A stretch of DNA of 64,000 nt from a virus. A program made the translations under genes and the position numbers. Shown here piece after piece: positions 5,111 to 62,523 of the stretch (its first letter is position 1; the number at the start of each line of letters is the position of its first letter). Where the stretch lies: the IMG/VR virus record IMGVR_UViG_3300049255_000405; one strand, 5' to 3'. Below the pieces are notes generated by a model. That model did no database searches and was not told where the DNA came from. It saw only the letters and a program-made list of their open reading frames with translations.

Positions 5111-5132
5111 CCGTTGAGCGTATTGTGGTGGG

Positions 5133-5867: not shown

Positions 5868-5877
5868 GGATGGCGAG

Positions 5878-21792: not shown

Positions 21793-21804
21793 CGCCAATT
21801 GGCG
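21793..21804. promoter_or_regulatory. Perfect 12-bp palindrome CGCCAATTGGCG in the divergent intergenic region, candidate operator
   Basis: Seen directly; about 35 bp upstream of ATG 21839 and about 100 bp upstream of the sigma gene start. Confidence 0.3.
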
Positions 21805-21838
21805 GCGTGCAAGCTGTTTTGTAAGGTCCAAGTATCCT

Positions 21839-22438
21839 ATGGGAACCGACGAGAAAGCCGACTACCTGCGCGAATGCATGTCCGACCCGGCGCTCGTGAA
21901 CCAGCCAATCCCAATCGACCAGTTTAGCCGTGCGTTCTGCGTGGTGTGTGGATACAAGCCCTGCGTTCGAAGCCGGGCCAACACCATGGTTTTTACGGAA
22001 CGAGTGGCTACCTGGCAACCTCGGCTGTTCACGAATGTCCCGAGAGCGGACGACAACGACCCGAACTATGCCCGGATACGGGCGAAGAACTTCCAGAGCG
22101 TGGACGAGCCTCTGGTGGTCAATACTCAAGCGGTCGCAGCTCCCGCGCCCACTCAGGCGCCAGCTCCGCAACCGCCGGACCCGCCGGTACATTCCACACC
22201 CGATCGACCTACGGAATCTCCTGTTCAGCAGGTTCAGACACCGCCGGCGCCCGTCCCCTTGGTCGCACAGCCTGCTCCTATGACGCAGGCCGCTAGCGTT
22301 AGCGCACCGCATCAGGAACCGACGCTCGATAATACTCCATTCGCCGGTGGGATTGTGCTGCCAGGCAAACCAGTCGACAAGAAAGAAGACAAATTCGTGG
22401 AGCCCGGCTCCACCTTCACTTTCGGCGACGATGACTGA
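21839..22438 (+). CDS. Hypothetical protein with Pro/Ala-rich linker
   Basis: Track ORF. Confidence 0.5.
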   Translation: MGTDEKADYLRECMSDPALVNQPIPIDQFSRAFCVVCGYKPCVRSRANTMVFTERVATWQPRLFTNVPRADDNDPNYARIRAKNFQSVDEPLVVNTQAVAAPAPTQAPAPQPPDPPVHSTPDRPTESPVQQVQTPPAPVPLVAQPAPMTQAASVSAPHQEPTLDNTPFAGGIVLPGKPVDKKEDKFVEPGSTFTFGDDD

Positions 22439-23297
22439 CAAGAAAGAAGGACCGCCGACCTGGGGTGAGGACATTTTCACCCTGGTGACCGCCCGCCAGT
22501 TGGGCTCGCAGCAGCTCGTCGAGCATGCCGAAGCTCAAATTGAGCGCCGCTACAGGCTCGAGATGCGCGAGAAGTTCCAGCGCGACCCGCGCGTCCGGCA
22601 GGCGCTGATAGAGTCGGCCGAGTGCTTGCTATCCGAAGGGACGTACGACTCCGTCCGCGGCCTGATGGTCGATGTGCTCCGCGCCGGCACCGAAGAAGTC
22701 TTCAACAGGATTCTGCACGAGCTGCTCGAAGAACTCGACGTGATGCACAAGCGCGAGCCTTCGGCGTATCTCGTAAGCCATCAGGACGGCAAAGTCCTGA
22801 TGCCGATCACGGACAAAGACGTCTACACGCCTCCTCCTTATGTTGGAGAGGACGGCATCACTCGGCCTGCGAAGCCGATCCTGCATCCGGCCATCTCAGC
22901 GCCGCTCACAATGCTGGCATTCGAGCAGGGTCGGAAGAACGAGGCCATCACTCGCGCCGTTGCCGCCGGCGCTCCGGCTGCAGTCGAACACCTCGTCATG
23001 GGGCCGGACGCCATACTCGAGCGCGCGAGGGTGCTCTTGCGAACTCAAGGGGTGACAGTTGAGCCATTAGAGAATGGCACCCCAGCAACTATCGAGGTCG
23101 GCAGGGAGCATGTCGACGACATGCTTCAAGCTCCGAATTACAATTTCCACCGCTCGCAAATGTACGGCTCACTTCTCGCCAAGAAGGTGCTGAATCTCTT
23201 GCGCGGGCAGGGCCGCTGCGACTTGAAGTCCGCGATCCTGAAGAAGGGCTCCAAGGAGCAGTGGTACGAAATCACGCTCGACTGGGCAGCGACTTAG
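22431..23297 (+). CDS. Hypothetical protein (288 aa)
   Basis: ATGACTGA overlap with the preceding gene; internal ATG of track ORF 22347..23297. Confidence 0.55.
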   Translation: MTDKKEGPPTWGEDIFTLVTARQLGSQQLVEHAEAQIERRYRLEMREKFQRDPRVRQALIESAECLLSEGTYDSVRGLMVDVLRAGTEEVFNRILHELLEELDVMHKREPSAYLVSHQDGKVLMPITDKDVYTPPPYVGEDGITRPAKPILHPAISAPLTMLAFEQGRKNEAITRAVAAGAPAAVEHLVMGPDAILERARVLLRTQGVTVEPLENGTPATIEVGREHVDDMLQAPNYNFHRSQMYGSLLAKKVLNLLRGQGRCDLKSAILKKGSKEQWYEITLDWAAT

Positions 23298-38217: not shown

Positions 38218-38658
38218 TCAGTGCTTGGAAGCGCCGCCGCAGTTCCAGCCCATTGCCTGCACGTCAGCCGAGGTCTTGGCACCGAGCAGATCGTTGCAGG
38301 TGAGGCCCTGCTGGGTCTTGGGGTTGCGGATGACGCGGTTGGCCTGCGCGAGCGACAGAACCTTGGCGCAATCCGCCTGCTGGGCGCAGCCCATGGCGGC
38401 CATCTGAGCGCATGCCTTGGCGCACGGATCCGTGGGAGCCGGAGGAGCTGCATCCTGCGCCGGAGTCGGAGCGGGAGCTGCATCGACCGCAGGCGTCGGC
38501 GTGGGGGCCGAATCCATGGTCGGGACAGGCGGCGGAGGGCTTCCGTCGGGTCCTCCGTCCGGTGCCGGTGGGTTGGGCGGGGTCGGAGGGCACCCCGCCA
38601 TGCCGAGCGTCGACACGGCCAGGAAGAGCCCGAGAAGGGGGATCGCTGTCTTCTTCAT
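38218..38658 (-). CDS. Proline-rich lipoprotein (possible outer-membrane spanin-like component)
   Basis: MKKTAIPLLGLFLAVSTLGMAGC signal with lipobox; PPNPPAPDGGPDGSPPPPVP; C-terminal Cys pairs. Confidence 0.55.
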   Translation of the reverse strand: MKKTAIPLLGLFLAVSTLGMAGCPPTPPNPPAPDGGPDGSPPPPVPTMDSAPTPTPAVDAAPAPTPAQDAAPPAPTDPCAKACAQMAAMGCAQQADCAKVLSLAQANRVIRNPKTQQGLTCNDLLGAKTSADVQAMGWNCGGASKH

Positions 38659-39527
38659 CACGCAGCCGCCTTCTGGACCTGGACGTCCATCACGTAAAGC
38701 TCCCAGGCCGCCTTGACCCACGCCTCGGAAACGAGGCAGCGACCGTTGTCACACCAGCCGGTACCCCAGCTGTTGGTGAGGATGAAGGTGCGGGTTCCGT
38801 CCGCGTTGGTGGTGTAGCCCGACAGGTAGATGGCGTGGCCACCGCCGTTCGGGTCGTTCGTGTTCGGAGGCTGCGCCACCTGGCCCGGCTGCAGCTGCTC
38901 GAACGCCGTGTCGACGAACGCCGCGACGTAGACCGGGAAACCGGCGGCGAGAGCCGCAGCCACCTGATCCGAAACGTTCGCTGCACTCGGGTCGATGGCG
39001 TACTCGCCCGTGACGATGGTGGTGCCAGCTGCCTGGAGCTGGTTGGCGTCCACCTCGTTGTTGACGTTCGCCGGCTGAGCCGTCGTGTCAGCATCCGACC
39101 AGATGTCGGAGTTGCGGCCGTCCGGAGTCGGGCCCTGCATCGGAGCAACGCCGAACTGCGCGCATGCCGTGAACACGTCCGCGGGCTCGGCGCCCGAGTC
39201 GGTGAGAAGCGGCAGGGGCTGACCCGCCGGCGTCTGCGCCGCGCGCTCGATTCCTCGAGTAGCGGCGTACGTCTCGCGCGGCGAAGGCTCGAACCCGATC
39301 TGGATGCCCGCCTTGCGGCAAGCTGTGGAGGTGCTGCCCGACAGCGAGTGCGCCGTGCAGGAGCCCGTCTGGCCCTGATCGAGCCGCGGGGGCTCCCACT
39401 GGGACAGGTCGACGGACGCCGGAACGGTGGCCGCAAGGAGTGCGGCAATCGCCGGGTGGGTGGCCGCCGCTTTCTTGGAGGCGACCTTCGACGGATGACT
39501 GCGCTTTGCACCCTTTGCGAACGGCAT
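38658..39527 (-). CDS. Papain-like (C1 family) cysteine peptidase, secreted
   Basis: QGQTGSCTAHS (catalytic Cys context), GGHAIYLSGY (His), NSWGTGWCDNG (Asn/Trp); weak N-terminal signal. Confidence 0.7.
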   Translation of the reverse strand: MPFAKGAKRSHPSKVASKKAAATHPAIAALLAATVPASVDLSQWEPPRLDQGQTGSCTAHSLSGSTSTACRKAGIQIGFEPSPRETYAATRGIERAAQTPAGQPLPLLTDSGAEPADVFTACAQFGVAPMQGPTPDGRNSDIWSDADTTAQPANVNNEVDANQLQAAGTTIVTGEYAIDPSAANVSDQVAAALAAGFPVYVAAFVDTAFEQLQPGQVAQPPNTNDPNGGGHAIYLSGYTTNADGTRTFILTNSWGTGWCDNGRCLVSEAWVKAAWELYVMDVQVQKAAA

Positions 39528-41114: not shown

Positions 41115-41741
41115 TCACTTGGGCTTCTGAACGAGGCCCATGCGCTCGGCAAGAGAGCGCATGACAGCATCACGCTCCTGGTCGTCCAGTTCATCCCAAG
41201 TCTTGCCGGCAGCGGAAGCCTTCGGCGAGGCGAGCTTCGCCTCGAGGCGAGCTTTACCGATCTGAGCCGCCGGGTGATGCTGGATAGCCGGAACGATGGT
41301 CACCGTAGGCTGGGCGGGCACCGTATCCGCAGGGGCGACCCCAGGAACGATGGAGCGATTCACCAGCAATTGGTTGCCGGACACGTTTGTCTTGGTGGCG
41401 ACTTCGTACACGTGAGTGACGGTTTCGAAAACGACGGCGACACGCTTGCCGTAGTCGGCATACCAAAGATCACGAGTGGCCTGGTCCATGGCGTGGCTGA
41501 TGTAAGCCGAGGGGAGCGCTGCCATCACCAAGGGCTGAGACGGGTCCTTGGACCAAAGACTACCCTGGATGGCATCTCCGAAATCGGAGAACGACACATC
41601 ATTCGGGAGCGTGTACTTGACGCCCGCCACGTAGAACACGCCGGCGCGAAGTATGTATTGCTGGCCAACAATATCGATGCGGTAGTTCAGATCCAACTGA
41701 CCGGCCGCGCCGACACCGTTATGGTAGTAGATCCCGAACAT
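41115..41741 (-). CDS. Hypothetical structural-module protein
   Basis: Track ORF, contiguous with structural genes. Confidence 0.5.
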   Translation of the reverse strand: MFGIYYHNGVGAAGQLDLNYRIDIVGQQYILRAGVFYVAGVKYTLPNDVSFSDFGDAIQGSLWSKDPSQPLVMAALPSAYISHAMDQATRDLWYADYGKRVAVVFETVTHVYEVATKTNVSGNQLLVNRSIVPGVAPADTVPAQPTVTIVPAIQHHPAAQIGKARLEAKLASPKASAAGKTWDELDDQERDAVMRSLAERMGLVQKPK

Positions 41742-44700
41742 TATTGTCTACCCGTAATGATGAAGGTGAAACCGCCGGACTGATTCGCGTTGTTGAAGTT
41801 AATGGACGTTGAGCTGATACCGCTCGATAGAACTGCCTGAGCCTGACTGAACGAAGACGTGTACATCGAGGCGAGCTGCAGGGACGGCCCCAGACCAGAC
41901 ACGAAGAAGAGCGGAGTGATTGCACAGGCAATCGATCCCTGACCGGCTCCAGTATCTGTGTTCGACGGGTTGGCATAGAAGTTAATAAGGATCTGTCCGC
42001 CAAACCCTCCGCCACCGTTGAAAATGGCATAGCTGTGCACGTTCCAGGAGTCGTACTCCTGGAACGTGGGGTGTCCACCACTGTCAGTAGTGACAAAGAT
42101 CGTGCCCCACGCCTTGATGACGTTTGCGCCGTTGACGGTGTTCTGAAGCGCCGCGGCGTTGTATGTGTCACCCAGGTGGGTGAGAGCGATGCCGTTGTCG
42201 CTGAATCCCTGGATGCAGGTCCAGCTCCCGTCCGACCAGTTTCCCCCGGGCTGGAAAACTGAGAAGTTGTACATGTACCCGGCCCCGTAGTTGCTACTCC
42301 CGAAGAGGAAGTTGCTTCCAGACCAGACGGTCATGAAGGCGTTCTGTCCAGGAACGTCAGGAACCCACACGCTTCCGTTCCAACTGGCGTTAGTTGTGAT
42401 GGCATACCAGTCGTTGTTGCCGGGCCCGTATCCGCCGTTGCCGGAAAAATTCCAGCCTCGGTAGTGGCGAATACAGACTCCTTGGCCTTGACCACCGAGA
42501 GCCCACGTGATGTGACCGTTATTCCCATCCGGAGCGACGGCGGCTGCGTTAGCAATTTGCACCGAAGTCCCAGAGATCACGTTGACGATCTGGAAATGCC
42601 CGTTGTTGTTGCCGTTGGCAGCTCCAGTGAAATACAGGTACATGCCCTGCATGTTGTTCGTCATACTGGCGAGGCCCGTGATCGTGGCGAGCCCGGCAGA
42701 CACAGCCGAAATGGTGCAACCTCCGTTGCGGCCAGCAGCGAACAAATAATCCGAGCCCTGCGGCCCAGTGCCGTACTCCGCTACCAGGATGCGCATTCCG
42801 CTGTCCGGGTGTGCCGGAACTGAGATGCGCGCGGCCAACTCAGAGGCGAGAGTCGCGGGAGCCAGCTCTCCGAGACGGAGATTGTTCGCCGTAACGATCC
42901 CGGCGTTGCCCTGGTTTCCGTTGATGGAGAACGGGAGAATGCTGTTCGGAGCGCTCGCGGGACCGTTTGGGGCCCACGTCGCCCACGGCGTGTTGTCGGC
43001 GGCTCCGCGGTGCCAATGGAGGAATTGGCTGCCGAAACCGCCGCCCGCGAGCATTTGAACAGCGTTGGCAGCCACGCCGTTGACGTCTTTCGCCCACGCA
43101 ACACCATTCCAGGCCGCGTTGATCGTGAACCAATAGTCCGTCTCGTTGGACGGATTCATCTGTGCGTAGATGCGGATGCTGGGGCTCGCGGTGGGGCTCT
43201 GAGCCTCCCAAATCAGAGTGAAGGTACTCGGCGCGGTCTGCGCGAGAAACCGCGGGATGAGATTCTCGTTGCTGGCGGTCGATTGCGTGCCGGCCAGGAT
43301 GAAGGCCAGCGCTCCGTTGAGCGCTCCGGACGGGTCGAAACCAACGGGCGGCGTGCCCGTACCGAGCGGAGAACCAGCAAACGTGAACGGGCTGGCGACC
43401 GCGGGGCCCGCGTAGAGAAACTCCATTTTGGGCTGGCCCGTGACGGTGCTCTGCCCGATGTAAACGGCGGACGCCGATTGCCCGGCCGTATCTTTCCTCC
43501 AGTTGATGGGGAACCCGACAGGACCGTTCCAATACGCGTTGCAGGTGACCCACAGTCCAGCTTGCGAGTCAGCGAAGAGCCGCATGATCTGCTGAGCATT
43601 GGAGCCGGTCAGACCAGCGACCGACACTCCCTCCCACAGGAGGGTCATGCCACTGCCTTGCGAACTCGAGAACGGCGTAACGATGCGCGGCGTCTGGTTC
43701 GCCTGCAGGTACCCGAGGTTACGCGCTCCGAGTGTGAGCGAGTCGATGCTCAGCACGTCGACGATCTTGCGCAGCAAGTCTGGATTGATCTTGCCGTCCG
43801 GACCGAGAAGCGCCGAGATGCCAAGATTTTCCGTGCCCGCCCCAGGCTGTGCCAGCTGCGGGTCGTCGGTGGCAAGGAACTTCTCGGTGGTGGTCTCGAT
43901 GTTCTCCGGCACCTCCCCGAACTCCATCATCTCGGGGATCATCGCGTGCACGACGGGAGGCGTGACCGCCTCGATGCCGATTGCCGTAGTACCCGTGACG
44001 CTGGTGCCTGACAGACCGAGCTTCGCCATCACGGCAGAAGAACCCGAGACCGTGATGCTCGCCGGAGTTCCGTACGGATCGTCGGTGGTGTGGTCGGGGC
44101 AAACGAAGGCGATTTCTTCGACCGTCGTCGCATTGCCGAATGGCTTGGCCACCACGGAGCCCGAATAAACTCCAGGCACAAGGCCGAGTTTGTCGAGGGT
44201 AGTCGTGAAGTTGTTGGTCGGCAGCGGGCTGGCGCCGAAGAGGTCACCCGCCATGATCTGCACGGTGGAACTCGGACCGCTCGTCAGATGGCTGGTGATT
44301 TGGAGAGTCCCGAAATTCGAAACCGCAGCCGATCCCTGGGCAGCCTGTCCGGCCGTGCTGATGGCGGCGTTGATGAAGTTCACTAGGTCGGATGTCGAGT
44401 AGACGCCCGTGGTCGGATAGATCTGAATCGGCGTGTTGCCGTTCAGAACGATGAAGAACATGTCCTGGCCAGTGATGAACTGCCAGGGCCCAGCAACAGC
44501 ACCGATGACGCCGCCACGACCGGCCTCGGTCCCCGCCGGGAATCCAGCTCCAGCGGCTGCCGCGTTCCAGGCCGCATTCACGGCGCTGATGACGTCTTGC
44601 GCACCGGTCGGCGCCACGCCAAACGTGATAGTGAGGACGTAGGTCTGGATGCTGAAGTTGTGGGACGGATTCGGATAGAGCGCCGGATTGACCGTATTGA

Positions 44701-45607
44701 CCGTGACCGTGAAGCTGTCGCTCGTGGTCAGCGAAGAAAAGTTGCCGCCACTCGTGATGACCTTGCCGGGTACGGAGCCCTGACGGACGTACGACACCAC
44801 GAACTTCGGATTGTTCGAGATGCCCGGGATTTGCTGCAGCCGTCCGTAGATGGACTGGCCAGGCGGATAGAGCGGTATGTTTCCGAGGCCGCTGACGTTG
44901 ATCTGAATGGGGGTCTGCGTGATCGCCGGCGACGAGTCCGGGTTGCGGAGCTGGATGAATCCGCCGAAACCATCCGTCGACTGCGTGATGATGCCGCGCA
45001 CCGGCGAAGAAATGCCCGTGACAGTGGCCGTGTTTCCTGGCGCCAATCCGAGCGCAGTGCACACGCCGACCGTGACGTCATTGACCGTCAGGAAGGCAGA
45101 AGAGCCAGTCGTGTAGCCCGAGGGACCCGCAGACTGGAGAACGAGCTGGCCGTTGATGTTTTGCGCGACCGGAGATGACGGGTTGACTCCGGCGACAGTG
45201 AGGGCCGCGTTGATACGCGCTGCCACCTTGGACGTCGTGATGTACGGATTGCCGCCGATGTTGACGACGTCGCTCGGTTGGAACGTGATGAGGACAGGGT
45301 TGCTCGAGTTGACGTTCGGGAGCGTGATGGTGAAAGACGCGCCCGCGACGACGGGCGACACGAACGGACCCTGCGCGCCGATGATGAACGCCGACGCATC
45401 CGACTCCGCGCCGCCGGGCGTCTGCGTGATGGTCTGCTGCAGGAATTCGTTGTAGTAGTTTTCCGAGATCGTGTTCTGGATGGTCTGAACAGTGCCGCCA
45501 GGAACGTCCGGCGTGCCGAACGGAATGGGCGTCGCCACACCGATCGTGTCGATCCGGGTGAAGTACGACCGCTGGTCCTTGATCTGTTCTTTGCGCGGCT
45601 GAGTCAT
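41741..45607 (-). CDS. Large virion structural protein (1288 aa), beta-rich, tail/baseplate-like
   Basis: Long S/T/G/N-rich ORF with 1-nt overlap to the downstream gene. Confidence 0.7.
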   Translation of the reverse strand: MTQPRKEQIKDQRSYFTRIDTIGVATPIPFGTPDVPGGTVQTIQNTISENYYNEFLQQTITQTPGGAESDASAFIIGAQGPFVSPVVAGASFTITLPNVNSSNPVLITFQPSDVVNIGGNPYITTSKVAARINAALTVAGVNPSSPVAQNINGQLVLQSAGPSGYTTGSSAFLTVNDVTVGVCTALGLAPGNTATVTGISSPVRGIITQSTDGFGGFIQLRNPDSSPAITQTPIQINVSGLGNIPLYPPGQSIYGRLQQIPGISNNPKFVVSYVRQGSVPGKVITSGGNFSSLTTSDSFTVTVNTVNPALYPNPSHNFSIQTYVLTITFGVAPTGAQDVISAVNAAWNAAAAGAGFPAGTEAGRGGVIGAVAGPWQFITGQDMFFIVLNGNTPIQIYPTTGVYSTSDLVNFINAAISTAGQAAQGSAAVSNFGTLQITSHLTSGPSSTVQIMAGDLFGASPLPTNNFTTTLDKLGLVPGVYSGSVVAKPFGNATTVEEIAFVCPDHTTDDPYGTPASITVSGSSAVMAKLGLSGTSVTGTTAIGIEAVTPPVVHAMIPEMMEFGEVPENIETTTEKFLATDDPQLAQPGAGTENLGISALLGPDGKINPDLLRKIVDVLSIDSLTLGARNLGYLQANQTPRIVTPFSSSQGSGMTLLWEGVSVAGLTGSNAQQIMRLFADSQAGLWVTCNAYWNGPVGFPINWRKDTAGQSASAVYIGQSTVTGQPKMEFLYAGPAVASPFTFAGSPLGTGTPPVGFDPSGALNGALAFILAGTQSTASNENLIPRFLAQTAPSTFTLIWEAQSPTASPSIRIYAQMNPSNETDYWFTINAAWNGVAWAKDVNGVAANAVQMLAGGGFGSQFLHWHRGAADNTPWATWAPNGPASAPNSILPFSINGNQGNAGIVTANNLRLGELAPATLASELAARISVPAHPDSGMRILVAEYGTGPQGSDYLFAAGRNGGCTISAVSAGLATITGLASMTNNMQGMYLYFTGAANGNNNGHFQIVNVISGTSVQIANAAAVAPDGNNGHITWALGGQGQGVCIRHYRGWNFSGNGGYGPGNNDWYAITTNASWNGSVWVPDVPGQNAFMTVWSGSNFLFGSSNYGAGYMYNFSVFQPGGNWSDGSWTCIQGFSDNGIALTHLGDTYNAAALQNTVNGANVIKAWGTIFVTTDSGGHPTFQEYDSWNVHSYAIFNGGGGFGGQILINFYANPSNTDTGAGQGSIACAITPLFFVSGLGPSLQLASMYTSSFSQAQAVLSSGISSTSINFNNANQSGGFTFIITGRQ

Positions 45608-51282: not shown

Positions 51283-51702
51283 CTACCCGCTGGATGCGAC
51301 GTCGTGAACAGTGAAGATTCCCTGATAAAAATAGACCGTGAGCGGGTAGACTGCGCTCAAAGGAGACACCTGCACCGAAATGCTTCCCGTGGAATTTATG
51401 ACCCTGTGAATCCTGATGCTTCCGTGACCTGAAATGGTCTGGACCACTCCTCCGCCAGAGATGGGTTCCCCACCGAGAGCGAACTGGACGAGCAACTGTA
51501 TCGGCTGTTCGACGAACACACTCAGTGCAACATGGGCGAGAAACGTGTTTCCAAGACTAGGCGAAATCCCAATCCCGTTGGTAGTGGCGTTGGAGAAGTC
51601 ACCCTGGTTTTCCCATGCGATATTCTGAGGGGTCCCGTTCGTCCAGATGTACGCGGCGTCCGGATCAGTGAGTCGGAACAGGTTGGAAAGCTCGCCGTAC
51701 AT
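51283..51702 (-). CDS. Small beta-rich protein, member 1 of three tandem ~140 aa paralogs (possible C1q/TNF-like tip domain)
   Basis: N-terminal MYG(E/Q)L and C-terminal YF(Y/F)QG(I/A)F(T/S)V shared by the 3 ORFs. Confidence 0.5.
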   Translation of the reverse strand: MYGELSNLFRLTDPDAAYIWTNGTPQNIAWENQGDFSNATTNGIGISPSLGNTFLAHVALSVFVEQPIQLLVQFALGGEPISGGGVVQTISGHGSIRIHRVINSTGSISVQVSPLSAVYPLTVYFYQGIFTVHDVASSG

Positions 51703-52600: not shown

Positions 52601-54166
52601 CTAGAAGCCGGTGATCTGATACTGCAGCGTCTCGGACCCGACCGTGTGCGAGTACACGTTAATGTAGCTCTGGAACGGTGAATTCTGGAACGCAGCCGCC
52701 CAAAGAGTTCCGGCAGCAGTCGATGATTTGACGGCGTTGATTTGTCCGGTGACGCCGGTGTAAATGGTCGAAACTAGCGTGGCCGAGGAGTTGTATCGAG
52801 CCACCCACTGATAGGTCGACAGTCCCGGCCCATTGATCTGCACGAACATCGTGTTGTCGATGGGATCGTAGTCCAACCGGCCCGTGATGAGAGTCGTCGC
52901 ATACGGGGCTGGCGAAGTAGGCAGTGTGATGTATGGAGACCCGTCGGCAAAGATCTGAGCGGTTGATCCTCCGAAAGTCTGGTACGGGGAATTCGGATTT
53001 CCGCCAATAGACCACATGACGTGGCCAAAAATGTAGTCCACCCAATAAGTAGTCGGGTACGTGTTGGCGCTGTTGTATTGAGTGGACGAAACCGTGGCTA
53101 GGGTTGAGGCATTCACCTCGAATAGCACTTCATAGTCACCAAAGAAGAAGCTGATGTTGTCAGCTGTGCCTCCCCAAAGGTGACCAGTGCTGGAGTTGTA
53201 CCCCATATGGCGGAGGTTCCAGTTGAACCCCGTGTACGTGTCGGTATTGGCTGCAACTGGAGTGACTGCAGTCGGAAACGCCGTGATAGCAGCTGCCGTA
53301 TTGAACTGCAGGATGTTCGCGCCGGAAGTGGGGTGGATGTTTATGTCGCTGACGCAAGTATAGAGAGAGCCACCCGTGGCGACTGCTGAGTCCGGAAAAA
53401 TGACAGCATATTGAACGCCACCATAGAGTGGATTCATGTACCCAACGACATTGAGCGTCGACTTGTCGATGACTAGGATGTACACGGTGCTACCCTGGCC
53501 AGATGGTAGCGCATACACATAGTTCGCATCGGCTGCGAAGGCTGCCGCTCCGCGATTCGAACCAGTCCAACCGGCGGATACGGGCACGTTGATCACCGCA
53601 TGGGTGGCGCCCGTCGTCCCATCCAAAACTGGAATGACGGCAGTCGTTTGCTCGACATCAGCGACGTACATCAAGTTGTTGACTGAGTCGTAGTACAAGT
53701 CCTGGATGAATTTGAACGGCGTAAGTGGGAATGGCGTCGGTTGAACAGCCTTTGTGATGAAAACGTCTGCGGTGACGTTCACGACAGCCTGAGTGCTGCC
53801 GGTGTTGAACACCATCTGCAGGCGGTCAGGACTGGATGCTGCAGTCACTGTGAAGGTCCAGGAGGACGCGGAAGAACTTCCGAACTGATCAACAGTATCC
53901 GAGGCACTAACTACCGTGACGCCGGCGATTCGACTTACCGCGAACCTCTGGACGAAGGACTGAGAGGCTGTCGAAGTGAGGATGTAACCGTTTGCGCTCA
54001 CGCGGATTTCAATGGTTCCGCTGTAGCCACTCGGCAGGACAAAGTACGTGTTGATCGGCCCGACAGCACCAGAGGGACCGGCGTTGACCAGTGCAATAGA
54101 CTCTCCGACCGCGTTGCCGGGTGTGGACCCGGTGAGAGTGACGTCGGGGAGAGGCTGGAAAGTCAT
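52601..54166 (-). CDS. Tail fibre / receptor-binding protein paralog 1: shared N-terminal anchor domain, beta-propeller (YVTN-like) C-terminus
   Basis: MTFQPLPDVTLTGSTPG N-terminus shared with the next two ORFs; repeats of the form NYVYALPSGQGSTVYILVID. Confidence 0.7.
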   Translation of the reverse strand: MTFQPLPDVTLTGSTPGNAVGESIALVNAGPSGAVGPINTYFVLPSGYSGTIEIRVSANGYILTSTASQSFVQRFAVSRIAGVTVVSASDTVDQFGSSSASSWTFTVTAASSPDRLQMVFNTGSTQAVVNVTADVFITKAVQPTPFPLTPFKFIQDLYYDSVNNLMYVADVEQTTAVIPVLDGTTGATHAVINVPVSAGWTGSNRGAAAFAADANYVYALPSGQGSTVYILVIDKSTLNVVGYMNPLYGGVQYAVIFPDSAVATGGSLYTCVSDINIHPTSGANILQFNTAAAITAFPTAVTPVAANTDTYTGFNWNLRHMGYNSSTGHLWGGTADNISFFFGDYEVLFEVNASTLATVSSTQYNSANTYPTTYWVDYIFGHVMWSIGGNPNSPYQTFGGSTAQIFADGSPYITLPTSPAPYATTLITGRLDYDPIDNTMFVQINGPGLSTYQWVARYNSSATLVSTIYTGVTGQINAVKSSTAAGTLWAAAFQNSPFQSYINVYSHTVGSETLQYQITGF

Positions 54167-54168
54167 GG

Positions 54169-55626
54169 TCAGTATTGGGTGATGGTTGCCAGGAAGGATT
54201 CTGTCCCTATGCCTGTTGAATAGATATCGATGTGTCCTTTGGCGGGCGAAAAGTCGTACTGCCCGACCCAGAGCCCCAGGGGCTCAGCCGCAGCGACGTA
54301 AGCGCGGCCGTTCACGCCTGCATTACCGAAGATGGAGGCTTGCGTGTTGGAGCTTGCAGCAATGCGCCAGATGTTCTGAGCACCGTAGCTGTTACCATTG
54401 AGCATGGCTGCAAGCACGGTGTCATGGTATGGGTCGTACGAGATCGCCGTTGGTGCGGGAAGACCGGAGGCAGGTGCAGGAGCACTCGCGCTCAAGAAGA
54501 TGAAAGTTGATAGGTCACGAAGCACCGAGCCTGGCGTGCTGTCGAAGTTGTAGTTCGGAGCGTTGAAATTACCGTGACCGATGCAGAACCAAACCGACGA
54601 GTCCGCGAAACAGCCGTGGTAGGTGAACACGCCTTCGGTTGTCGGATTGGTGTCGATCGAGTACGTGGTGACGGAGCTTTCAGACAGAGCACTTGTGAGC
54701 TGCACCAAAACAGCCTGTGACGACGAGACGTAACATCCTGCCCACAGAAGGCTGTCGTTCGGGTCCCAAACAATCCCGCGGAAATCGCGGCTCACAGTCG
54801 TATTGGCATCCGGCGACGCGGGTGTCGGGTATGACGAGATGACCGACGAGATGGTAAACCGGTAGATGATGTTCCCGGACAACGAGATCGCGTACAAGTG
54901 CGTTCCGTCCGAAGCCAGGTCGTAACCACCGAACCCCGTGGAAAGGTTGGCGATGCCGATGATGGAGCAGTGCACAGGGTCGATGATGAGAATGTGCTTC
55001 TGGAACCAATTGCTAGCGTAGATGTACGTGCCGTCACCAATGATCCGTGTGGCACCGGTCGTCCAGCTGGCACTGGTGGCGTTGACAACCGCTTTCGGGC
55101 TGCGAGTCGCGGCCTGGAAAACCGGGATATCTGGATTCGAGAGATTCGGGTCTCCAATCCACATATTGTCGTTGGTGGAATCGTAGAACAGATCCCAAAC
55201 CTGAACGAACGAGCGGACCGGCGGAGCAGTCCCAGGCTTGATGGACCTCGTGACCTGTATGTCGGCTCGCACGGATGTGTAAGCCTGGGTACTGCCGGTC
55301 GTGAATGTGAGGGCGAATCTGTCCGGACTCGAGCCCACTGAAGCGGTCACCGTCCACGACGAGGCACCTGCATCGCCAAGCTGATCCAGCGTATTGGACG
55401 CGACGATTGTCGTCACACCTGAATCTCGGCGGACACAAAACCTACGAATGAAAGACTGGGAAACAAACGCTCCCGAGATGATGCCGCTGGCAGCTACCCG
55501 AACTTGGAGTGTGAAGCTCTCGTTGTCGGTTAGGGTGAAGTGAGGCAGCAACTCCACAGACTCGCCCGTCGCGAATCCAGGTGTGGACCCGGTGAGAGTG
55601 ATGTCGGGAAGCGGTAGAAAGCTCAT
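54169..55626 (-). CDS. Tail fibre / receptor-binding protein paralog 2: shared N-terminal domain, different beta-propeller C-terminus
   Basis: MSFLPLPDITLTGSTPG...SSWTVTASVGSSPDRFALTFTTGSTQ; THLYAISLSGNIIYRF repeats. Confidence 0.7.
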   Translation of the reverse strand: MSFLPLPDITLTGSTPGFATGESVELLPHFTLTDNESFTLQVRVAASGIISGAFVSQSFIRRFCVRRDSGVTTIVASNTLDQLGDAGASSWTVTASVGSSPDRFALTFTTGSTQAYTSVRADIQVTRSIKPGTAPPVRSFVQVWDLFYDSTNDNMWIGDPNLSNPDIPVFQAATRSPKAVVNATSASWTTGATRIIGDGTYIYASNWFQKHILIIDPVHCSIIGIANLSTGFGGYDLASDGTHLYAISLSGNIIYRFTISSVISSYPTPASPDANTTVSRDFRGIVWDPNDSLLWAGCYVSSSQAVLVQLTSALSESSVTTYSIDTNPTTEGVFTYHGCFADSSVWFCIGHGNFNAPNYNFDSTPGSVLRDLSTFIFLSASAPAPASGLPAPTAISYDPYHDTVLAAMLNGNSYGAQNIWRIAASSNTQASIFGNAGVNGRAYVAAAEPLGLWVGQYDFSPAKGHIDIYSTGIGTESFLATITQY

Positions 55627-55628
55627 GA

Positions 55629-56681
55629 TTAGAACAACGCAATCTTGTAACGGGCGCTCGCGTAATTCATGTATTGCGCGATTTCAGCTGCATTGATGAC
55701 ACGAGGCCACAGGATTTGCTCGGCGACATAAGACTGGTTGCTGCCAAGATTTTGATCGAGACTTGATGTGATGGTGGTTGGGGTCGTACCACTCCCCGTC
55801 GCTCGAACAGCTGTCCCGTTCACGTAGAGACTGACCGCACCACCCGAGGTGAATGTGCCAATGATGATACCCGGCACAGCTCCGAGGGTCACTCCAGTAT
55901 ACTCGACGACGCTACCTTCGTAGATGTATGGGTAGCAAGGAGACGACGAAACGCCTGTGCTTGGACCTGTGGTCTGCCAGACGAAGGTCCCTCCCGCCAG
56001 TCCGCCCCTATAAACCGAGGCAATCGTCCAGCCAACGGCTGAATTCAGGGAGAGCGCACCTGAGAACAGCTCTCCGAGAACGGCGGCCGGGGATCCGATT
56101 GAAGCTTGATGGTTGAATGTTGAATCGGACGCGTTCCATAGCGGCTGTTGCGAAGGCGTCGACTGTGACAGGTCTGTGTGGAAACTGGTCTGATCGGCCC
56201 AAAACGACACGTTGCCGGCGTTCAGAGTCACACCAAGATCGGCTCTGTGAGCTTCGATGGGGCCGACCGGGATCGAGAGCAGGAAGTTGTTCGGTTCGAC
56301 GGTGACCCGAATGTCGGCCGTGACGTTGACGATGGACCTCGTGCTTCCAGTCGTAAACGTGAGTTTGAATCTGTCAGGGCTCGTCCCAACAGTCGCAGCC
56401 AACGTCCATGAGGAACCACCGGAATCTCCGAAAGCATCCTGGGAATCGCTGGCGACAATAGTAATCACCCCCAAGCTGCGTCTCACGGAGAACCTCTGCA
56501 CGAAGGATCGGATCGTCCTCGTGGCAGGATAGACATAGCCTGCAGCCACCACGCGCACTTCGAACGTCAAGCTATGATTGTCAGCGGGCGTGAAGTGCGG
56601 CAAAAGTTCGACAGATTCGCCCGTGACAGAACCCGGAGTGCTGCCCTTGAGAGAAATGTCGGGTAGCGGCAGGTAGCTCAT
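55629..56681 (-). CDS. Tail fibre / receptor-binding protein paralog 3: shared N-terminal domain, LamG/ConA-like lectin C-terminus
   Basis: MSYLPLPDISLKGSTPG; C-terminal SLYVNGTAVRATG...QILWPRVINAAEIAQY (LamG-like); ATGA overlap with the upstream gene. Confidence 0.7.
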   Translation of the reverse strand: MSYLPLPDISLKGSTPGSVTGESVELLPHFTPADNHSLTFEVRVVAAGYVYPATRTIRSFVQRFSVRRSLGVITIVASDSQDAFGDSGGSSWTLAATVGTSPDRFKLTFTTGSTRSIVNVTADIRVTVEPNNFLLSIPVGPIEAHRADLGVTLNAGNVSFWADQTSFHTDLSQSTPSQQPLWNASDSTFNHQASIGSPAAVLGELFSGALSLNSAVGWTIASVYRGGLAGGTFVWQTTGPSTGVSSSPCYPYIYEGSVVEYTGVTLGAVPGIIIGTFTSGGAVSLYVNGTAVRATGSGTTPTTITSSLDQNLGSNQSYVAEQILWPRVINAAEIAQYMNYASARYKIALF

Positions 56682-57619
56682 CAGACGATCTTGTAGTGAC
56701 TGCCCGTCCATTGCCAGTCGATAGACTGGCTGTTCACGGAGATTTGGACTGACGTCGCGAAATTCCCTTGATTGTTCGGATCCTCGATGGGACGGCTGGC
56801 TTGACTCTGGACCGTGATCGGATAGGTCGCAGCGAATCCTGTGTCATCAGTCACTCGGAAGAGCTGCTGGGTTGTGGGCAGGGTGAGGTCCGGAGCGTTG
56901 ACTGTCGTGGTAGCCACGCTCGTGTCTACGATGGCCTGCAAGTGAGAGGAGTCGAGAGTGCCGGTCGATGGGTTGGCGTTCCCAACATTGATGAAGCCGA
57001 CCGGAACACCGATAACAGTTCCTCCTCCACCAGAGGCATTGGAAGAGATGACCTTCCACTGGTCATAAGATTCCACGAACTCCCACGTAACGACTTGCGA
57101 ATTCGTGTGGATGGTAACGCTGGACGAATAGGTTCCAGGACTGTTCGGGTCCTCGATCTGGAATCCGTTGCCGTAGACCGTGATGTTGTTGGTTGCAGCG
57201 TTATTGTTTGCGTCAGCAACCGTGCAAACCCAGTCGATGGTCCCGTAAGTCGTCGCATCTATCAGGTTGACTGTCACCGGTCCTGACAGAGTGTCCACCA
57301 TCGCTGTCAGCGACGTTGGCGTCAGCGTGATGGTGCTGGAGCTGAGAGTCTGACCTGCTTGACGGCCTCCATTCGAGAATCCGAGAGGCCGGTTCATATA
57401 GCGAATGCTATTGAAATTCCTGTCTTCCCATGCGCCAGTGTAGAGGGCAATGGTGTTGATACCGAGGCCCGACTGGTAAATCGGGACAACGACAGTTCCG
57501 GAACTGTCAACTGCTATTCCTCGAGGAGATGCACCCAATCCCGGAGACTGTGTAGTAAACAGAATCTCCCCCGTCTCGGGATGTATGCGATAGACTGTCG
57601 AGGGGCTTGCGGCAGGCAT
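56681..57619 (-). CDS. Fibre-associated beta-rich protein with an internal duplication
   Basis: Two ~45 aa repeats (...IEDPNSPGTYSSSVTIHTNSQVVTWEF.. / ..IEDPNNQGNFATSVQISVNSQSIDWQW..). Confidence 0.55.
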   Translation of the reverse strand: MPAASPSTVYRIHPETGEILFTTQSPGLGASPRGIAVDSSGTVVVPIYQSGLGINTIALYTGAWEDRNFNSIRYMNRPLGFSNGGRQAGQTLSSSTITLTPTSLTAMVDTLSGPVTVNLIDATTYGTIDWVCTVADANNNAATNNITVYGNGFQIEDPNSPGTYSSSVTIHTNSQVVTWEFVESYDQWKVISSNASGGGGTVIGVPVGFINVGNANPSTGTLDSSHLQAIVDTSVATTTVNAPDLTLPTTQQLFRVTDDTGFAATYPITVQSQASRPIEDPNNQGNFATSVQISVNSQSIDWQWTGSHYKIV

Positions 57620-57622: not shown

Positions 57623-59782
57623 TTATGGATTCCCGATAGATGCGTAAATGGAAACCCCGTCCCACACCAATCGACCGCCGAACGGTGCAGGAATCGTCAC
57701 TGACGAGATCTCAGATCCGATCTGAGTCTCCGTACCCACTCCTGTCGTGTAGCGGAATAGACCTCGAGTCGGGAAATCAGCGACGGTAACCCAAATGGCT
57801 GTGGGAGTTATGACCGCGGAACTGTTTCCACCAATAGGTGGAACCCACGTCGACACTTCAAGATTAGTCGATGTGCTAACGCGACTGACGCTCTCGCTCT
57901 CATCACCAACCAGAATAGTGCCGAACGTGGCATCGTAGCTCAAGGCGCTTGATGTGCTTGTAGAAGTGACGATGTTCGTGAATGCACCGCCAGCGGGGAA
58001 CGCGGTCGGATCGACTCGGAAAAGATTCCCCGAGTACCCGCTAAAGACGGAGCCCGTGGACGCCCAGATAGACCCGGCCGCCGCAAGAACGAACTGGATG
58101 CACGGGTAGGCACTTCCTGTTCCCGGGAAATCGAAGTGAGAAATTTCGACCAGAGTGCTCGTGTTTAGCTTCACGAGTGACTCGGTGACTCCAGTTTCGT
58201 TTTGAGTACCTGCGAAAACGGTCCCCGTCACTGGGTCATAGGCACAAGCGTGGTATCCACGCTGTACGGGCGAAGTGACCGATGGTCCGATAGCCGACGG
58301 ATATGAGGACAACGCCGTGGCAATGGAATACTTCTGGATGTTGCTGCTTGTGAGGCTCGAGTAGTTACTCGCAACGATGTAGATGTTGCCAGCCCCGTCG
58401 AGGGTTTGGTCCTGCACGGTAAGACCGGCACCGGCATCCAGCATCCCAACGATAGCACCTGTCGTCTTGTTGACGATGATCAGGTACCTATCGAATCCGA
58501 ACCCGTTAGAGATGTAGACGTAGTTGGAGTCACCGATGACTCGACTGGCGCCGTTTCCAATGGCAGTAAGATCAACCGCTAGGTCTCCAGCTTGAGTAGC
58601 TGCCTTTATCGAGACGGCCGTGCCGAGCTTCTGGTCGGCCACCCACACATTGTCGTTGGGAGCGTCGTAGAACAGATCTCTGGGGCTAGAGAAACTGACT
58701 GTATCGCCAGACGCCGGCAGTGGAATCACTGGACCAGCGTTTCCAGACGTCAGGTCCCACGCGTAGATCGTCGGAATACCAGAATTGCTCGCAAGAATAC
58801 GAGCAAACCGTCCATCCGAGATCATATCCAGGGCCGTCACACCGGTCGCGATTGTACTCACTTGAGTAAGCGAGTAGGTAGAGAAATTGATAGAGAATTT
58901 GACTAGACTTTGGCTAGTGTTATATGCGACCCAAAGGAATCCGGCGTCATCGAGAAACATCGCGTTTGGCGCGTCGCCTGTTGTAAACGCATCGTGAATG
59001 GTGCCAACAGAATCCACGATGTAGATGTGCCCGTTGGTCGCGCTGAAAGCGAATTGCGGGGTGGTGCTTAGAACTGGGTCACCACCACCGCCTCCAATGA
59101 AGCACGCACGCACGGGTGCTGACGTCGTCGCAGTGTGGTAACTCTGGACGTAATACATGTTCGGGGGCGTGCCATTGATTGTTCCGCATTCTACGAACAA
59201 CCCGTTGGGAAAAGCCCCGAAAATGTTATCCTGAGGAGACGGGAACACCGTTCCCGTCTGGCCACGAATGCCGATCAAGTCGACCGGCGTGTCCCCATAA
59301 TTGGTCAGCGAGCCACTCATCACTGATTGCGGAACGAACAGGTCGATACCAACGAGAGCACCCGGTGTTTTGGAATATCCAACATAGAAAAACTTGTCAC
59401 CGATGAAACATGTGGCGATTCCAGCCACCTGAGTTAGATAGTCGGTGAGTACGCTGATCCCGAGGTTGGCTGGAAAAATGTAGCCGGGGGATATTGGCGT
59501 ATTGGAAGCGAGCAAATCGTTCCTTCGCAGGAATGGCTGCTTCCTTGTGCGCAGAGTAGTCGCGTTATCCGTGAACCCACCGCCGCCTGTGATGTTGATC
59601 GTAGCCACACCGCTGCCGGCGTCCGCCGCGGTCACACTCCCAGTGAGATTGAGGATGGTATGCGGGTTATTCGGGATGGGAGTGCCAGCCTGCTCGATGC
59701 TGACACCCGGAGTCCCACCACCAGCTCCCGATTCAACGGGAACGACGGGCTCTGGAGTAAGCTGTACGAACGGCCTGGGCAT
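57623..59782 (-). CDS. Tail fibre-like protein with beta-propeller repeats (719 aa)
   Basis: Repeats of the form DSNYVYISNGFGFDRYLIIVNKTTGAIVG and GNIYIVASNYSS; TAATG junction with the upstream gene. Confidence 0.65.
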   Translation of the reverse strand: MPRPFVQLTPEPVVPVESGAGGGTPGVSIEQAGTPIPNNPHTILNLTGSVTAADAGSGVATINITGGGGFTDNATTLRTRKQPFLRRNDLLASNTPISPGYIFPANLGISVLTDYLTQVAGIATCFIGDKFFYVGYSKTPGALVGIDLFVPQSVMSGSLTNYGDTPVDLIGIRGQTGTVFPSPQDNIFGAFPNGLFVECGTINGTPPNMYYVQSYHTATTSAPVRACFIGGGGGDPVLSTTPQFAFSATNGHIYIVDSVGTIHDAFTTGDAPNAMFLDDAGFLWVAYNTSQSLVKFSINFSTYSLTQVSTIATGVTALDMISDGRFARILASNSGIPTIYAWDLTSGNAGPVIPLPASGDTVSFSSPRDLFYDAPNDNVWVADQKLGTAVSIKAATQAGDLAVDLTAIGNGASRVIGDSNYVYISNGFGFDRYLIIVNKTTGAIVGMLDAGAGLTVQDQTLDGAGNIYIVASNYSSLTSSNIQKYSIATALSSYPSAIGPSVTSPVQRGYHACAYDPVTGTVFAGTQNETGVTESLVKLNTSTLVEISHFDFPGTGSAYPCIQFVLAAAGSIWASTGSVFSGYSGNLFRVDPTAFPAGGAFTNIVTSTSTSSALSYDATFGTILVGDESESVSRVSTSTNLEVSTWVPPIGGNSSAVITPTAIWVTVADFPTRGLFRYTTGVGTETQIGSEISSVTIPAPFGGRLVWDGVSIYASIGNP

Positions 59783-62523
59783 TAGTGCGCCACCCTTCTC
59801 GGATTGAGCATGTTCCCGGGAACTCGATAGACCGCAGCAGCGCTGTCACTGAGACCGGGCTGCAATCCGATGTTCACGTTCTGGTCGAACTCACCCCAGC
59901 GACTAAAGACGACCATAACGAGAGTGCCCTTCCTCCCGATGCTTCCTACACCGATGCCTCCATTGAAATCGGCTCGCAGTTCCATGAGAACGGGGAACGC
60001 CACTTTGTGCTGCTGCGCCAAAGACATCGACTGACCCCAAATGACGGGCGAGTAAATCGGAGGACTCCCGGAATCGGATCGCGGCCAGAAGTTCCGGTTG
60101 TCACCATCGATTGTCGTGTCTGGCGCGAGCTTGTAGAGCTGCACCTGGCCGGGATCGGGAGAGTATGGGATCATCGCCTGCAACTGCAGATAGCCGGCGT
60201 TGATGCCGAATCCGACAACCGAAATTGCACTCGGGGAATCGAGCCGTGCCTCCGGGTAATCCGATGGTGGTAGCAAACCGATCGGAATTTGAGCGCTGGG
60301 AGAGACATACGGGAACGAATCGTCCGGGCTACCCGATCCTTGAGTGAGCAGGTGAATGGCTTTGGGGATCGCGCGAGCGTAGAGCGGCAACGTGATCGGA
60401 CCACCCGACGGGACCGGAATGGACTGAATCGCTGCAGTGTTGTACCAGATCTGGTACGAATCGTCCGGCGCGGCACCGACCGTAGGAAGAGGACGAAGCG
60501 CTACGAAGGTCGCCTGCACTGGCGTGTTGGCCGAGACAGCGGGGCTCAAAGTTACCTGCGTGTAGTTCGCGTTCACCACGTACGCAGTCGTCGTATACGG
60601 CGGGTTGATACCGTCGTTGATGGATACGGTTCCGGAGAGCTTCTCCGGGATCCAGATAGCCGCACCGGTGGAATCCGCGTAGTACATGTTCGGCCCCTGC
60701 GCAGTCGTGCGAAGACGCGCCGCGACCTCACGATGCCCTGGATTGGCCCACCAGAGGTTGGTCGTGTCAGTCGGAGACCCGGGATTCGTGAGTGCGAACC
60801 GTCCGCCGTCACTCGTTGGCGAAAGCTGAGTGGCGTCTACCCACACCGGTAGACTGGCTGCCGGTGGAGTCCAGAACGCCACCGAATTGAGCATGTTGCG
60901 TTTGGTGCCGTTGTCATTCAAGTATTCTATCCACAGCTCTGCTTGGATCGTGAAGCTCGAGCCAGGGGCTGTGTTGAGGTTGACTGTAACCGTGTCTATT
61001 GGGCCACCGAGCGTGCTGGCAGTCAGAACGACCGACTGCGCGAAGACCGTGTTGGTCAGATCCGTCAGGTCGAGGTCTGTACTCGAGACGAGCATCCGCA
61101 AGGATCCAACACCAGAGATGTTCGTCCCGGCGGGGGCCAAAGCGGCGAGATTCACAGTGCCGGGCGCCAGGTACACAGGTGACAACGCATTGAGGTGAAA
61201 CACCACGGTAGTCGTGGAACCCGTCTGCGACCCGCTCGTGACAGCAATCGACTCGGTAATCGATCTGTCGCTGAAGTTGATACGAACGCCGTCAGAAGTC
61301 CCAATGTGACCAGGCGGGCTCGTGATGTCGTCCTTGTAAAGGAACGAGGTTCCGCCGATGACGTTCGAGATGCCGAAGTCTTGATTGTACTCGAGTTCGG
61401 TAGCGAGTGTGTTGTCGAGAAGGCGTTGGAACGTCTTGTCGAGGACTTCCGTCAGATCCCACGCCACGCCCTTGCGCAGATCGAGAACATCCGACACGAC
61501 GATCTGATCGGCGTACAGGTTGTCGGGTCGACCGGAAACCGCCGATCCCATGAGCCCGGCACCATTGACGTTGGTCATCCTGTCGAACGGTGCGCTATTA
61601 CGACGGAAGACCGCACAAATCGGAACGGCGTACATGTAGCCGTCGACTGTCCCGAGCAGCGCCGCAGAAGGAGAGTCTCCCGTACCAGCTATCCAGAGCC
61701 CAGCGTCTCCGGGCGAAGGCATGTACTGAAACCCCGTGGGAGATCCATCGGGACCCGGAGAAGGGTAAGCGGGGATAGTGTTGGCGACTGCGACAGGGCA
61801 GTCGAGTCCGTCCGGAAAAGCCTGCAGCCATTTGTCCGGAAGATTCGAGATGACTCGATATCTGTACTGGATCTGGACTCGCCTCGCAGTTTCCTCAGCA
61901 AAGGTCGGATCCACGAGGTCGTCCGACAAATTCTGGTTGGGACTGACGTCGGGACTTTTGACGTTGCCGTAGCGCAAAATCTGCCCGGCCTGGCTTTTGT
62001 TCGTCGAGTCCGGGGCCGGCGACACCAAAGCCCTCCAGACCTCGAGAATGACCAGATCGGTGCGTTCTCCGCCAAGAGGCGGAGCCGGAAGAACAACGTA
62101 GTTCGTTCCTTGCACGCCGTAATTGGGCAGCGTCGTGTTGGCTTCGATGGCCGTGAGGTTGAAGTTCACGAGCCAGCCGTTGACGTTCACCGTCGAGGCG
62201 GATAGAGCGAACGTGTTGGCCGTGGTCGAAGACGTCGTGTCAGGCGCTAGAAACGTGTAGTCTCCCGTGACGTTCGAGCGCTCGAGGAAATCTGCGTTGA
62301 GCCATCCCGAAGGGAGAAACTGCTGACTCAGGAGCCGAATGCCGGCCGCCCCAAGGATCGACTGCAGGAGGTTGATCTCCCAGTCGGCGGACGGCTTGTT
62401 CTGCTGGATGACAAGCTGCTCCCACGAGTGGTCCTGGGACGTGTATGCGCCACTCCCGTTCGCAGGTTCCTGGACCTTCTGCGGGTTCTGACTGACGTTC
62501 GGTCCGAGGTTCTCGAATCCCAT
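59782..62523 (-). CDS. Large structural protein (913 aa), paralog of the 1616 aa protein
   Basis: See 45620..50470. Confidence 0.8.
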   Translation of the reverse strand: MGFENLGPNVSQNPQKVQEPANGSGAYTSQDHSWEQLVIQQNKPSADWEINLLQSILGAAGIRLLSQQFLPSGWLNADFLERSNVTGDYTFLAPDTTSSTTANTFALSASTVNVNGWLVNFNLTAIEANTTLPNYGVQGTNYVVLPAPPLGGERTDLVILEVWRALVSPAPDSTNKSQAGQILRYGNVKSPDVSPNQNLSDDLVDPTFAEETARRVQIQYRYRVISNLPDKWLQAFPDGLDCPVAVANTIPAYPSPGPDGSPTGFQYMPSPGDAGLWIAGTGDSPSAALLGTVDGYMYAVPICAVFRRNSAPFDRMTNVNGAGLMGSAVSGRPDNLYADQIVVSDVLDLRKGVAWDLTEVLDKTFQRLLDNTLATELEYNQDFGISNVIGGTSFLYKDDITSPPGHIGTSDGVRINFSDRSITESIAVTSGSQTGSTTTVVFHLNALSPVYLAPGTVNLAALAPAGTNISGVGSLRMLVSSTDLDLTDLTNTVFAQSVVLTASTLGGPIDTVTVNLNTAPGSSFTIQAELWIEYLNDNGTKRNMLNSVAFWTPPAASLPVWVDATQLSPTSDGGRFALTNPGSPTDTTNLWWANPGHREVAARLRTTAQGPNMYYADSTGAAIWIPEKLSGTVSINDGINPPYTTTAYVVNANYTQVTLSPAVSANTPVQATFVALRPLPTVGAAPDDSYQIWYNTAAIQSIPVPSGGPITLPLYARAIPKAIHLLTQGSGSPDDSFPYVSPSAQIPIGLLPPSDYPEARLDSPSAISVVGFGINAGYLQLQAMIPYSPDPGQVQLYKLAPDTTIDGDNRNFWPRSDSGSPPIYSPVIWGQSMSLAQQHKVAFPVLMELRADFNGGIGVGSIGRKGTLVMVVFSRWGEFDQNVNIGLQPGLSDSAAAVYRVPGNMLNPRRVAH

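Follow-up and report, generated by a model that had tools for sequence, protein, structure and literature searches.

What do three adjacent phage genes encode when their products begin alike and end differently, and is the part that they have in common the joint or the head of a tail fibre? The question is raised by positions 52,601 to 56,681 of a 64,000-nucleotide stretch of DNA from IMG/VR virus record IMGVR_UViG_3300049255_000405, which as a whole is called the window hereafter. We name the three genes A, B and C, and we use "X" for the common N-terminal domain of about 130 amino acids (aa) in their products. On balance, and with modest confidence, we read the locus as a cassette with three slots for modular receptor-binding proteins of the distal tail fibre, in which X would act as a trimerising and docking node and the C-terminal modules as exchangeable heads. 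The three genes and their parts are laid out as follows.

52601-54166, minus strand: gene A, an open reading frame (ORF) of 521 aa; X domain, then propeller-like domain; third slot
54169-55626, minus strand: gene B, an ORF of 485 aa; X domain, then propeller-like domain; second slot
55629-56681, minus strand: gene C, an ORF of 350 aa; X domain, then possible LamG/ConA-like domain; first slot
53747-54166, minus strand: X domain of A, aa 1-140, including an insertion of 12 aa in a loop (from alignments and hmmsearch, expectation value (E) 2.6e-55)
55243-55626, minus strand: X domain of B, aa 1-128
56292-56681, minus strand: X domain of C, aa 1-130, 63% identical to that of B
52604-53719, minus strand: C-terminal propeller-like domain of A, aa 150-521 (from homology to the C-termini of B and D and from weak matches, mostly to propeller families)
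54172-55215, minus strand: C-terminal propeller-like domain of B, aa 138-485
55632-56291, minus strand: C-terminal domain of C, aa 131-350, a candidate ConA/LamG-like jelly roll (from a sub-threshold Laminin_G_3 match)

Three paralogues with a common N-terminus

A preliminary description of this DNA had proposed three paralogues with a conserved N-terminus of about 130 aa and divergent C-terminal parts, and pairwise alignment places this similarity far beyond chance. By BLASTP, the X regions of B and C are 63% identical over 127 aa (E 7e-48), the N-terminal parts of A and C are 45% identical over 150 aa (E 4e-35), and A and B can be aligned over their full length (E 7e-67), while the similarity between B and C ends at about residue 127, at the motif ADI.VT. 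A profile search of the six-frame translation of the window returned exactly three copies of X (E 1e-55 to 1e-62). Between these paralogues third codon positions are 35-37% identical, against 49-57% identity at the amino-acid level; the third positions are thus saturated, so the duplication is old and X is under purifying selection. Recent gene conversion as the source of the N-terminal conservation is ruled out by the same third-codon identity and by a longest exact DNA match of only 22 nucleotides between the X paralogues. Only about ten residues stand ahead of the first strand of X in A, B and C, and consequently none of the three has another N-terminal anchor.

The cassette in related genomes

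The related set consists of four genome fragments besides the window, one of which was joined from two contigs (L015+L016). In each of the four fragments, as in the window, three X-genes follow one another at a syntenic position common to all; their products in the fragments are given here from the first slot to the third.

L009: C-type, 366 aa; C-type, ~355 aa; B-type, 488 aa
L013: C-type, 356 aa; DUF4082-type, 330 aa; 579 aa, C-terminus of another kind
L018: C-type, 344 aa; 400 aa, C-terminus of another kind; A-type, 513 aa
L015+L016: 344 aa; 398 aa; third gene partial

Wherever it can be compared, the first slot is of the C type, and the other slots hold propeller-like, DUF4082 or other modules. 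Orthologues were found for A (P0025 of L018, 48% identity over the full length) and for B (P0005, 65-70% identity). The X domains of window B and of the second slot of L013 are nearest neighbours with 64% identity, and the C-termini behind them, propeller-like in the one and DUF4082 in the other, are unrelated; the same holds for window A and the 579-aa protein of L013, likewise nearest neighbours in X with unrelated C-termini. Such pairs show directly that modules have been replaced at the junction behind X, and the shuffling of C-terminal modules on a common N-terminal domain, which the three genes of the window had first suggested, is thus seen across related genomes.

Two genes upstream of C belong to the same block and enter the argument below.

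56681-57619, minus strand: gene E, 312 aa, directly before the X-gene trio; speculatively, a candidate docking partner
57623-59782, minus strand: gene D, 719 aa; fibre-like, with an N-terminus other than X and a propeller-like module as in A and B

The ORF of C is open to 56711, and its start is placed at the methionine at 56681, which is conserved in paralogues and orthologues and was chosen by two of three gene callers. At this point the stop codon of E overlaps the start of C (TGATG), and the gaps between C and B and between B and A measure 2 nucleotides each, a spacing as tight as in an operon with translational coupling. An E-like gene directly precedes the trio in L009, L013 and L018, the three fragments that reach far enough upstream, and E is a possible docking partner of the X proteins. 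Its product contains two internal repeats of ~100 aa. The best conserved pieces of the block are the last ~110 aa of this product, with 67-72% identity between genomes, and the N-terminus of the 1616-aa protein encoded downstream, with 84%. Orthologues of D occur in L009 and L018, so that D, too, is a conserved part of the block, upstream of the trio.

The constant number of three brings to mind an assembly in which A, B and C form a 1:1:1 heterotrimer through X, with three binding modules at each fibre tip. This would account for the exactly three consecutive X-genes in all five related fragments (the window included) despite their changing C-termini, and it would fit both the translational coupling of the genes and the pairing of X domains by slot between close genomes, at 72% for slot 1 and 64% for slot 2 of the window and L013, and at 64-72% for the slots of L018 and L015+L016. 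Across deeper splits, however, the pairing is only partial, and the X domains of all cassettes do not fall into three clean slot-specific clades; in L009, moreover, the C type seems to have been duplicated and the A type lost, and homotrimers are, as a matter of general knowledge, the rule for known fibres. We therefore hold a heterotrimer to be very unlikely; if the constant three did reflect one, it would be an unusual way of building a multivalent tip.

The idea that the receptors are switchable, also put forward in the preliminary description, finds no footing at the locus. All genes are co-oriented, the inverted repeats between 50 and 60 kb are only short and imperfect and none is suitably placed to flank them, and a scan of part of the ORFs, which was not a search for recombinases, showed no invertase.

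Fold and family of X

The AlphaFold2 (AF2) model of B aa 1-135 is all-beta, a jelly-roll barrel of nine strands (predicted local distance difference test (pLDDT) 87.4, predicted template modelling score (pTM) 0.78), and the same fold recurs in the full-length model of C (pLDDT 81-94). The fold matches phage tail-fibre and tailspike structures, and after them the jelly rolls of microvirus and plant-virus capsids. Foldseek against the PDB returned the fibre and tailspike set again, together with T4 gp9 (1qex), an entry titled 'the long tail fibers connector'; in BFVD, 86 viral proteins match the X model at E<=1e-3, among them several collagen- or YadA-like ones from uncultured tailed phages and some that come from giant-virus metagenome bins. 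The confident X model is thus structurally similar to solved gp9-like and tailspike C-terminal jelly-roll members, to which sequence homology is undetectable: the X profile gave only chance-level matches to PDB sequences (E of at least 0.29). The tailspike region matched by X is most likely the C-terminal domain, as judged from published domain descriptions, the search output carrying no aligned ranges. One such description is that of the APK09_gp48 tailspike, which has a nine-stranded C-terminal barrel at residues 569-760 (PMC10219094); the literature on Kp9 gp42 held nothing usable on which of its domains matches X.

Membership in the X family was defined by a full-length profile match with the motifs GSTPG, GES.EL, SSWT, PDR and FTTG. 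An exhaustive hidden Markov model (HMM) search of 1.84 billion representatives yielded 268 members, 197 of them at E<=1e-10, with A, B and C scoring E 1e-49 to 1e-55. A word-indexed homologue search with the same X profile found 3 proteins only, none of them encoded in the window, and a statement that X has few homologues, made from that search alone, would have misled. The top match of the exhaustive search, P0017 (7361 aa, with 44 partial matches), was discarded as a false positive: it is a mucin-like repeat protein of a eukaryote, and its rank came from the addition of weak repeat scores. X has no match among the Pfam, PHROG and NCBIfam models.

Across 103 X sequences the five motifs are nearly invariant, and two loops vary in length among members. 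In these 103 sequences the partner domains upstream of X include YadA_head (18), Collagen (7) and also propellers, TIG and Kelch, and several members open with short N-terminal motifs that we take to be fibre-type N-termini. P0002 is located in a myovirus baseplate module, among Dit-like, sheath-initiator and wedge genes. The fold of X, the YadA-like and collagen repeats and fibre-type N-termini of its family, and the member in a baseplate module together mark A, B and C as fibre-like, and the fibre character first ascribed to them is upheld by the matches to tail-fibre and tailspike proteins and to T4 gp9.

Joint or head of a fibre

The position of X was classified in the best 149 of the 268 representatives, with P0017 left out.

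X at the very C-terminal end, in longer proteins of 1603 aa at most: 108
X essentially alone, behind a short fibre-type N-terminus: 26
X N-terminal with downstream sequence: 12, of which A, B and C are three
X position unclassified: 3 (2 internal, 1 fragment)

What had been described as a conserved N-terminal anchor is conserved indeed, but its role as an anchor was read from position, and X is usually C-terminal in its family. That X can precede distal modules within a single chain follows from P0101, which runs from a shaft through a YVTN propeller and YadA-like repeats to X, TIG and a Kelch propeller, and from P0160, with the order shaft, X, TIG. X thus appears to be a general node or end domain of trimeric fibres, and A, B and C look like "X plus head" set apart as separate genes. 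One divergent member, P0149 (L017 35-1843), has an N-terminal X followed by two tandem C-type (LamG-like) domains, and it retains the linker motif (ADAQAS.IVFRG) that is found before X in C-terminal-type fibres; this linker and domain order suggest that the combination of X with a LamG-like domain arose, or split off, more than once.

In the arrangement that we favour, X would trimerise and would form a conserved node that joins each of the three proteins non-covalently to a common virion partner. Candidates for this partner would be the end of another fibre or a baseplate protein encoded adjacent, by D, E or F (59782-62523, a gene preceding D). After X the chain runs directly into a replaceable module, propeller-like in A and B and possibly ConA/LamG-like in C. 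These modules may contact different host-surface ligands, and several specificities would then be displayed at once, with no switching. The docking role is suggested by the conservation of X as against its variable heads, by the lack of a further N-terminal anchor in the three proteins, by the gp9 fold, which is that of a fibre connector, and by the single-chain proteins with the order shaft, X, head.

Several observations weigh against this arrangement. About 73% of the best 149 members carry X as a distal C-terminal domain and have N-terminal anchors of their own, and in the minimal proteins P0001 and P0002 X is the sole globular domain, which fits a "head" as well as a "socket". Compared by tblastn with 50,697 deposited phage genomes, neither B nor a central member of the X family gave a match, and no PHROG, Pfam or NCBIfam model comes close to its threshold with A, B or C, save Laminin_G_3 with 17 bits in C. 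The C-terminal modules owe their proposed binding roles to weak fold assignments. Finally, the genome measures 240 kb or more and the window covers 64 kb of it, so that the docking partner may be encoded elsewhere.

The family architectures also invite the opposite thought, namely that X is an exposed ligand-binding head or end-cap, which in A, B and C would serve as a second binding domain or as a nucleus for folding and trimerisation, with attachment to the particle achieved otherwise. The prevalence of X at the extreme C-terminus or on its own would be expected of such a head, as would the two loops of variable length, and the best structural matches of X are tailspikes, whose sole large beta-barrel is C-terminal. 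The near invariance of the motifs in 103 sequences from very divergent metagenomic phages is, however, atypical of host-specific tips. Within the cassette, too, it is X that is conserved and the downstream modules that are replaced, and the ten or so residues before X leave A, B and C with no other N-terminal anchor. For these reasons we consider a role of X as the head rather unlikely and prefer the docking node. If X is such a node, it marks the site of natural module exchange in a large group of uncultured phages and could aid the annotation of their fibres. As receptor-binding proteins decide the host range of phages, their modularity bears on host jumps and makes them engineerable.

A further proposal joins the number of genes to the placement of X: the three X-genes would constitute a fixed "three-slot" system, either a 1:1:1 heterotrimeric tip or a set of three distinct docking sites, in which a domain that normally caps or ends fibres has been turned into an N-terminal joint for exchangeable binding heads with genes of their own. 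We think this decidedly unlikely; if true, it would amount to a split-fibre architecture, with the shaft and the X-plus-head unit being different polypeptides.

The C-terminal modules

The preliminary description had A and B carrying two different, swapped modules, a view that has to be given up, since their C-terminal parts are homologous, ~30% identical to each other, and both also homologous to D. The module of B matches aa 363-686 of D by BLASTP (E 4e-24), and that of A is likewise related. As to the label of YVTN-like propellers, the weak matches do converge on propellers, and none lies above a curated threshold. B matches PDB 1l0q, a YVTN propeller S-layer protein, at E 1.9e-4, and its C-terminal domain is weakly similar to the propeller region of P0051 (E 4e-5); D has sub-threshold Pfam matches to Lactonase (0.003) and NHL (0.009); and in eight homologues most sub-threshold matches are to propeller families (DUF5074 at 5e-6, Lactonase, Kelch, SBBP, NHL and Reg_prop). 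A and B themselves have no Pfam match at E<=0.1, and a profile of the propeller-like domain found no match in the PDB. From sequence comparison, then, the C-terminal domains of A and B are likely, although unproven, to be beta-propeller-like, with no curated threshold reached.

D consists of two propeller-like halves behind an N-terminal motif (IEQAGTPIPNNPHTILNLTG...), and the same motif opens C-terminal-X fibres such as P0035. In L018 its orthologue (2904-6578) is enlarged to 1224 aa by an extra copy of the propeller-like module.

For the C-terminal domain of C (aa 131-350), the best indication comes from Pfam Laminin_G_3 (PF13385), which scores 16.8-17 bits (E 0.007), below its cut-off of 27.6 bits, and is matched in two of eight homologues. 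By eye, the C-terminal motif AEQILWPRV..AAEI..YMNY resembles the ends of LamG_3 domains. The AF2 model of aa 131-350 has a pLDDT of ~30 and is unusable for a fold search, and a profile of eight C-type domain homologues gave no match in the PDB. Homologues of the domain occur in P0163 and P0164 and, as two tandem copies, in P0149, from which a related C-type copy matches 'virion structural protein' genes of phages S-CBS4 and REQ2. The LamG-type domain with carbohydrate binding that had been ascribed to C is thus unconfirmed at these scores; both the putative LamG identity and the carbohydrate binding are leads only.

Genome context

Proteins of the window are also encoded on contigs as long as 240 kb, with 'hypothetical protein' as their annotation, and the window encodes PolA, DnaB, an SNF2 helicase, a RecA/UvsX-like protein and a sigma factor; contigs of this size with these genes mark the source as an uncultured jumbo phage. 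The trio stands in a structural-looking run, the products of which are, in order, 2080, 275, 218 and 205 aa, F (913 aa), D, E, C, B and A; downstream of A there follow three small paralogues and proteins of 223, 1616 and 1288 aa. The giant proteins of this run have almost no family matches and are encoded as follows.

41741-45607, minus strand: 1288 aa
45620-50470, minus strand: 1616 aa
L011 70-6312: 2080 aa

Their sole match is that of the 1616-aa protein to the PHROG 'tail protein' family phrog_1101, over 86 residues. A repeat of the 1288-aa protein (aa 963-1037) recurs in the 579-aa X-protein of L013. The three small tandem paralogues, which adjoin A downstream, are ~30% identical to one another.

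51283-51702, minus strand: 139 aa
51709-52134, minus strand: 141 aa
52134-52571, minus strand: 145 aa

They have no match in Pfam, PHROG or the PDB and no BLAST match in L009 or L013, and kinship between them and X was rejected at an hhalign probability of 0.7%.

This context bears on whether A, B and C belong to the virion at all, or are instead secreted or host-surface accessory proteins, for example in superinfection exclusion or matrix binding, that reuse a fibre domain. Such a role would agree with their want of any structural-protein family match and with a stand-alone X protein, P0003, that lies among small non-structural genes on a 188-kb contig. Yet the clues to a virion context are several: the fibre-type fold of X, the fibre-type partner domains in its family, and the position of the trio in a run of giant, structural-type genes, with adjoining tail-like giant proteins of which one has the tail match. 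No signal peptide is evident either, as judged by eye and with no predictor; MSFLPLPDITL leads straight into the first strand. We regard an accessory, non-virion role as highly improbable and retain the reading of A, B and C as distal tail-fibre proteins.

Elsewhere in the window, three ORFs drew attention.

30642-33326, minus strand: 894-aa homologue of the major vault protein (MVP), between the DNA polymerase and helicase genes
21023-22480, minus strand: 485-aa protein with a sigma-70 region 2 match
38658-39527, minus strand: 289-aa ORF with a match to papain-family peptidase (Peptidase_C1)

The first of these matches MVP_shoulder (1.3e-25) and Vault_3 (7e-11) in Pfam and is named 'major vault protein' in one source; a literature search gave no paper on MVP in jumbo phages, the sole one with both terms being a Borg preprint. 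The other two are unusual phage accessory genes.

Comparison with known systems

A conserved N-terminal part, a swapped C-terminal part and several paralogues in one operon are the classical design of phage receptor-binding proteins. In these respects the cassette resembles the Friunavirus/KP32-like tailspikes and the CBA120/G7C multi-tailspike sets, which likewise combine operon paralogues, a conserved N-terminal region and replaceable C-terminal modules. It differs from them in that X, having no Pfam or PHROG match, is not a known anchor domain; that the fold of X is like the C-terminal barrel of tailspikes and not like their N-terminal particle-binding domain; and that the modules behind X are propeller-like or, in C, possibly LamG-like, and not beta-helix depolymerases. 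In contrast to the invertible switches of the Mu G segment and the P1 C segment, with their opposed C-terminal exons flanked by inverted repeats beside an invertase gene, the genes A, B and C are co-oriented.

As for individual domains, the Acinetobacter and Klebsiella phage tailspikes and fibres that X resembles in fold (7xy1, 5w5p, 8oq0, 6c72, 6e1r) are only 8-19% identical to it in sequence, and in the window X is N-terminal. The weak matches of A, B and D lie mostly among the YVTN, YncE and lactonase propellers, none at a curated threshold, and C shares with Laminin_G_3 a C-terminal motif and a sub-threshold match. T4 gp9 (1qex) and the gp9-like baseplate proteins (9f4a) have no detectable sequence similarity to X. 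In the gp9 structure of 1999, a coiled coil and a middle domain reportedly come before the barrel, whereas A, B and C begin with the barrel and continue into other domains.

Against this background, what is new is the X family itself, which is large, unnamed and drawn from uncultured viruses only, the inverted placement of X in A, B and C as compared with most members, and the conserved three-copy cassette. X is an undescribed and widespread domain, putatively a connector, which may end fibres, lie inside them, stand alone or, as here, open three binding proteins.

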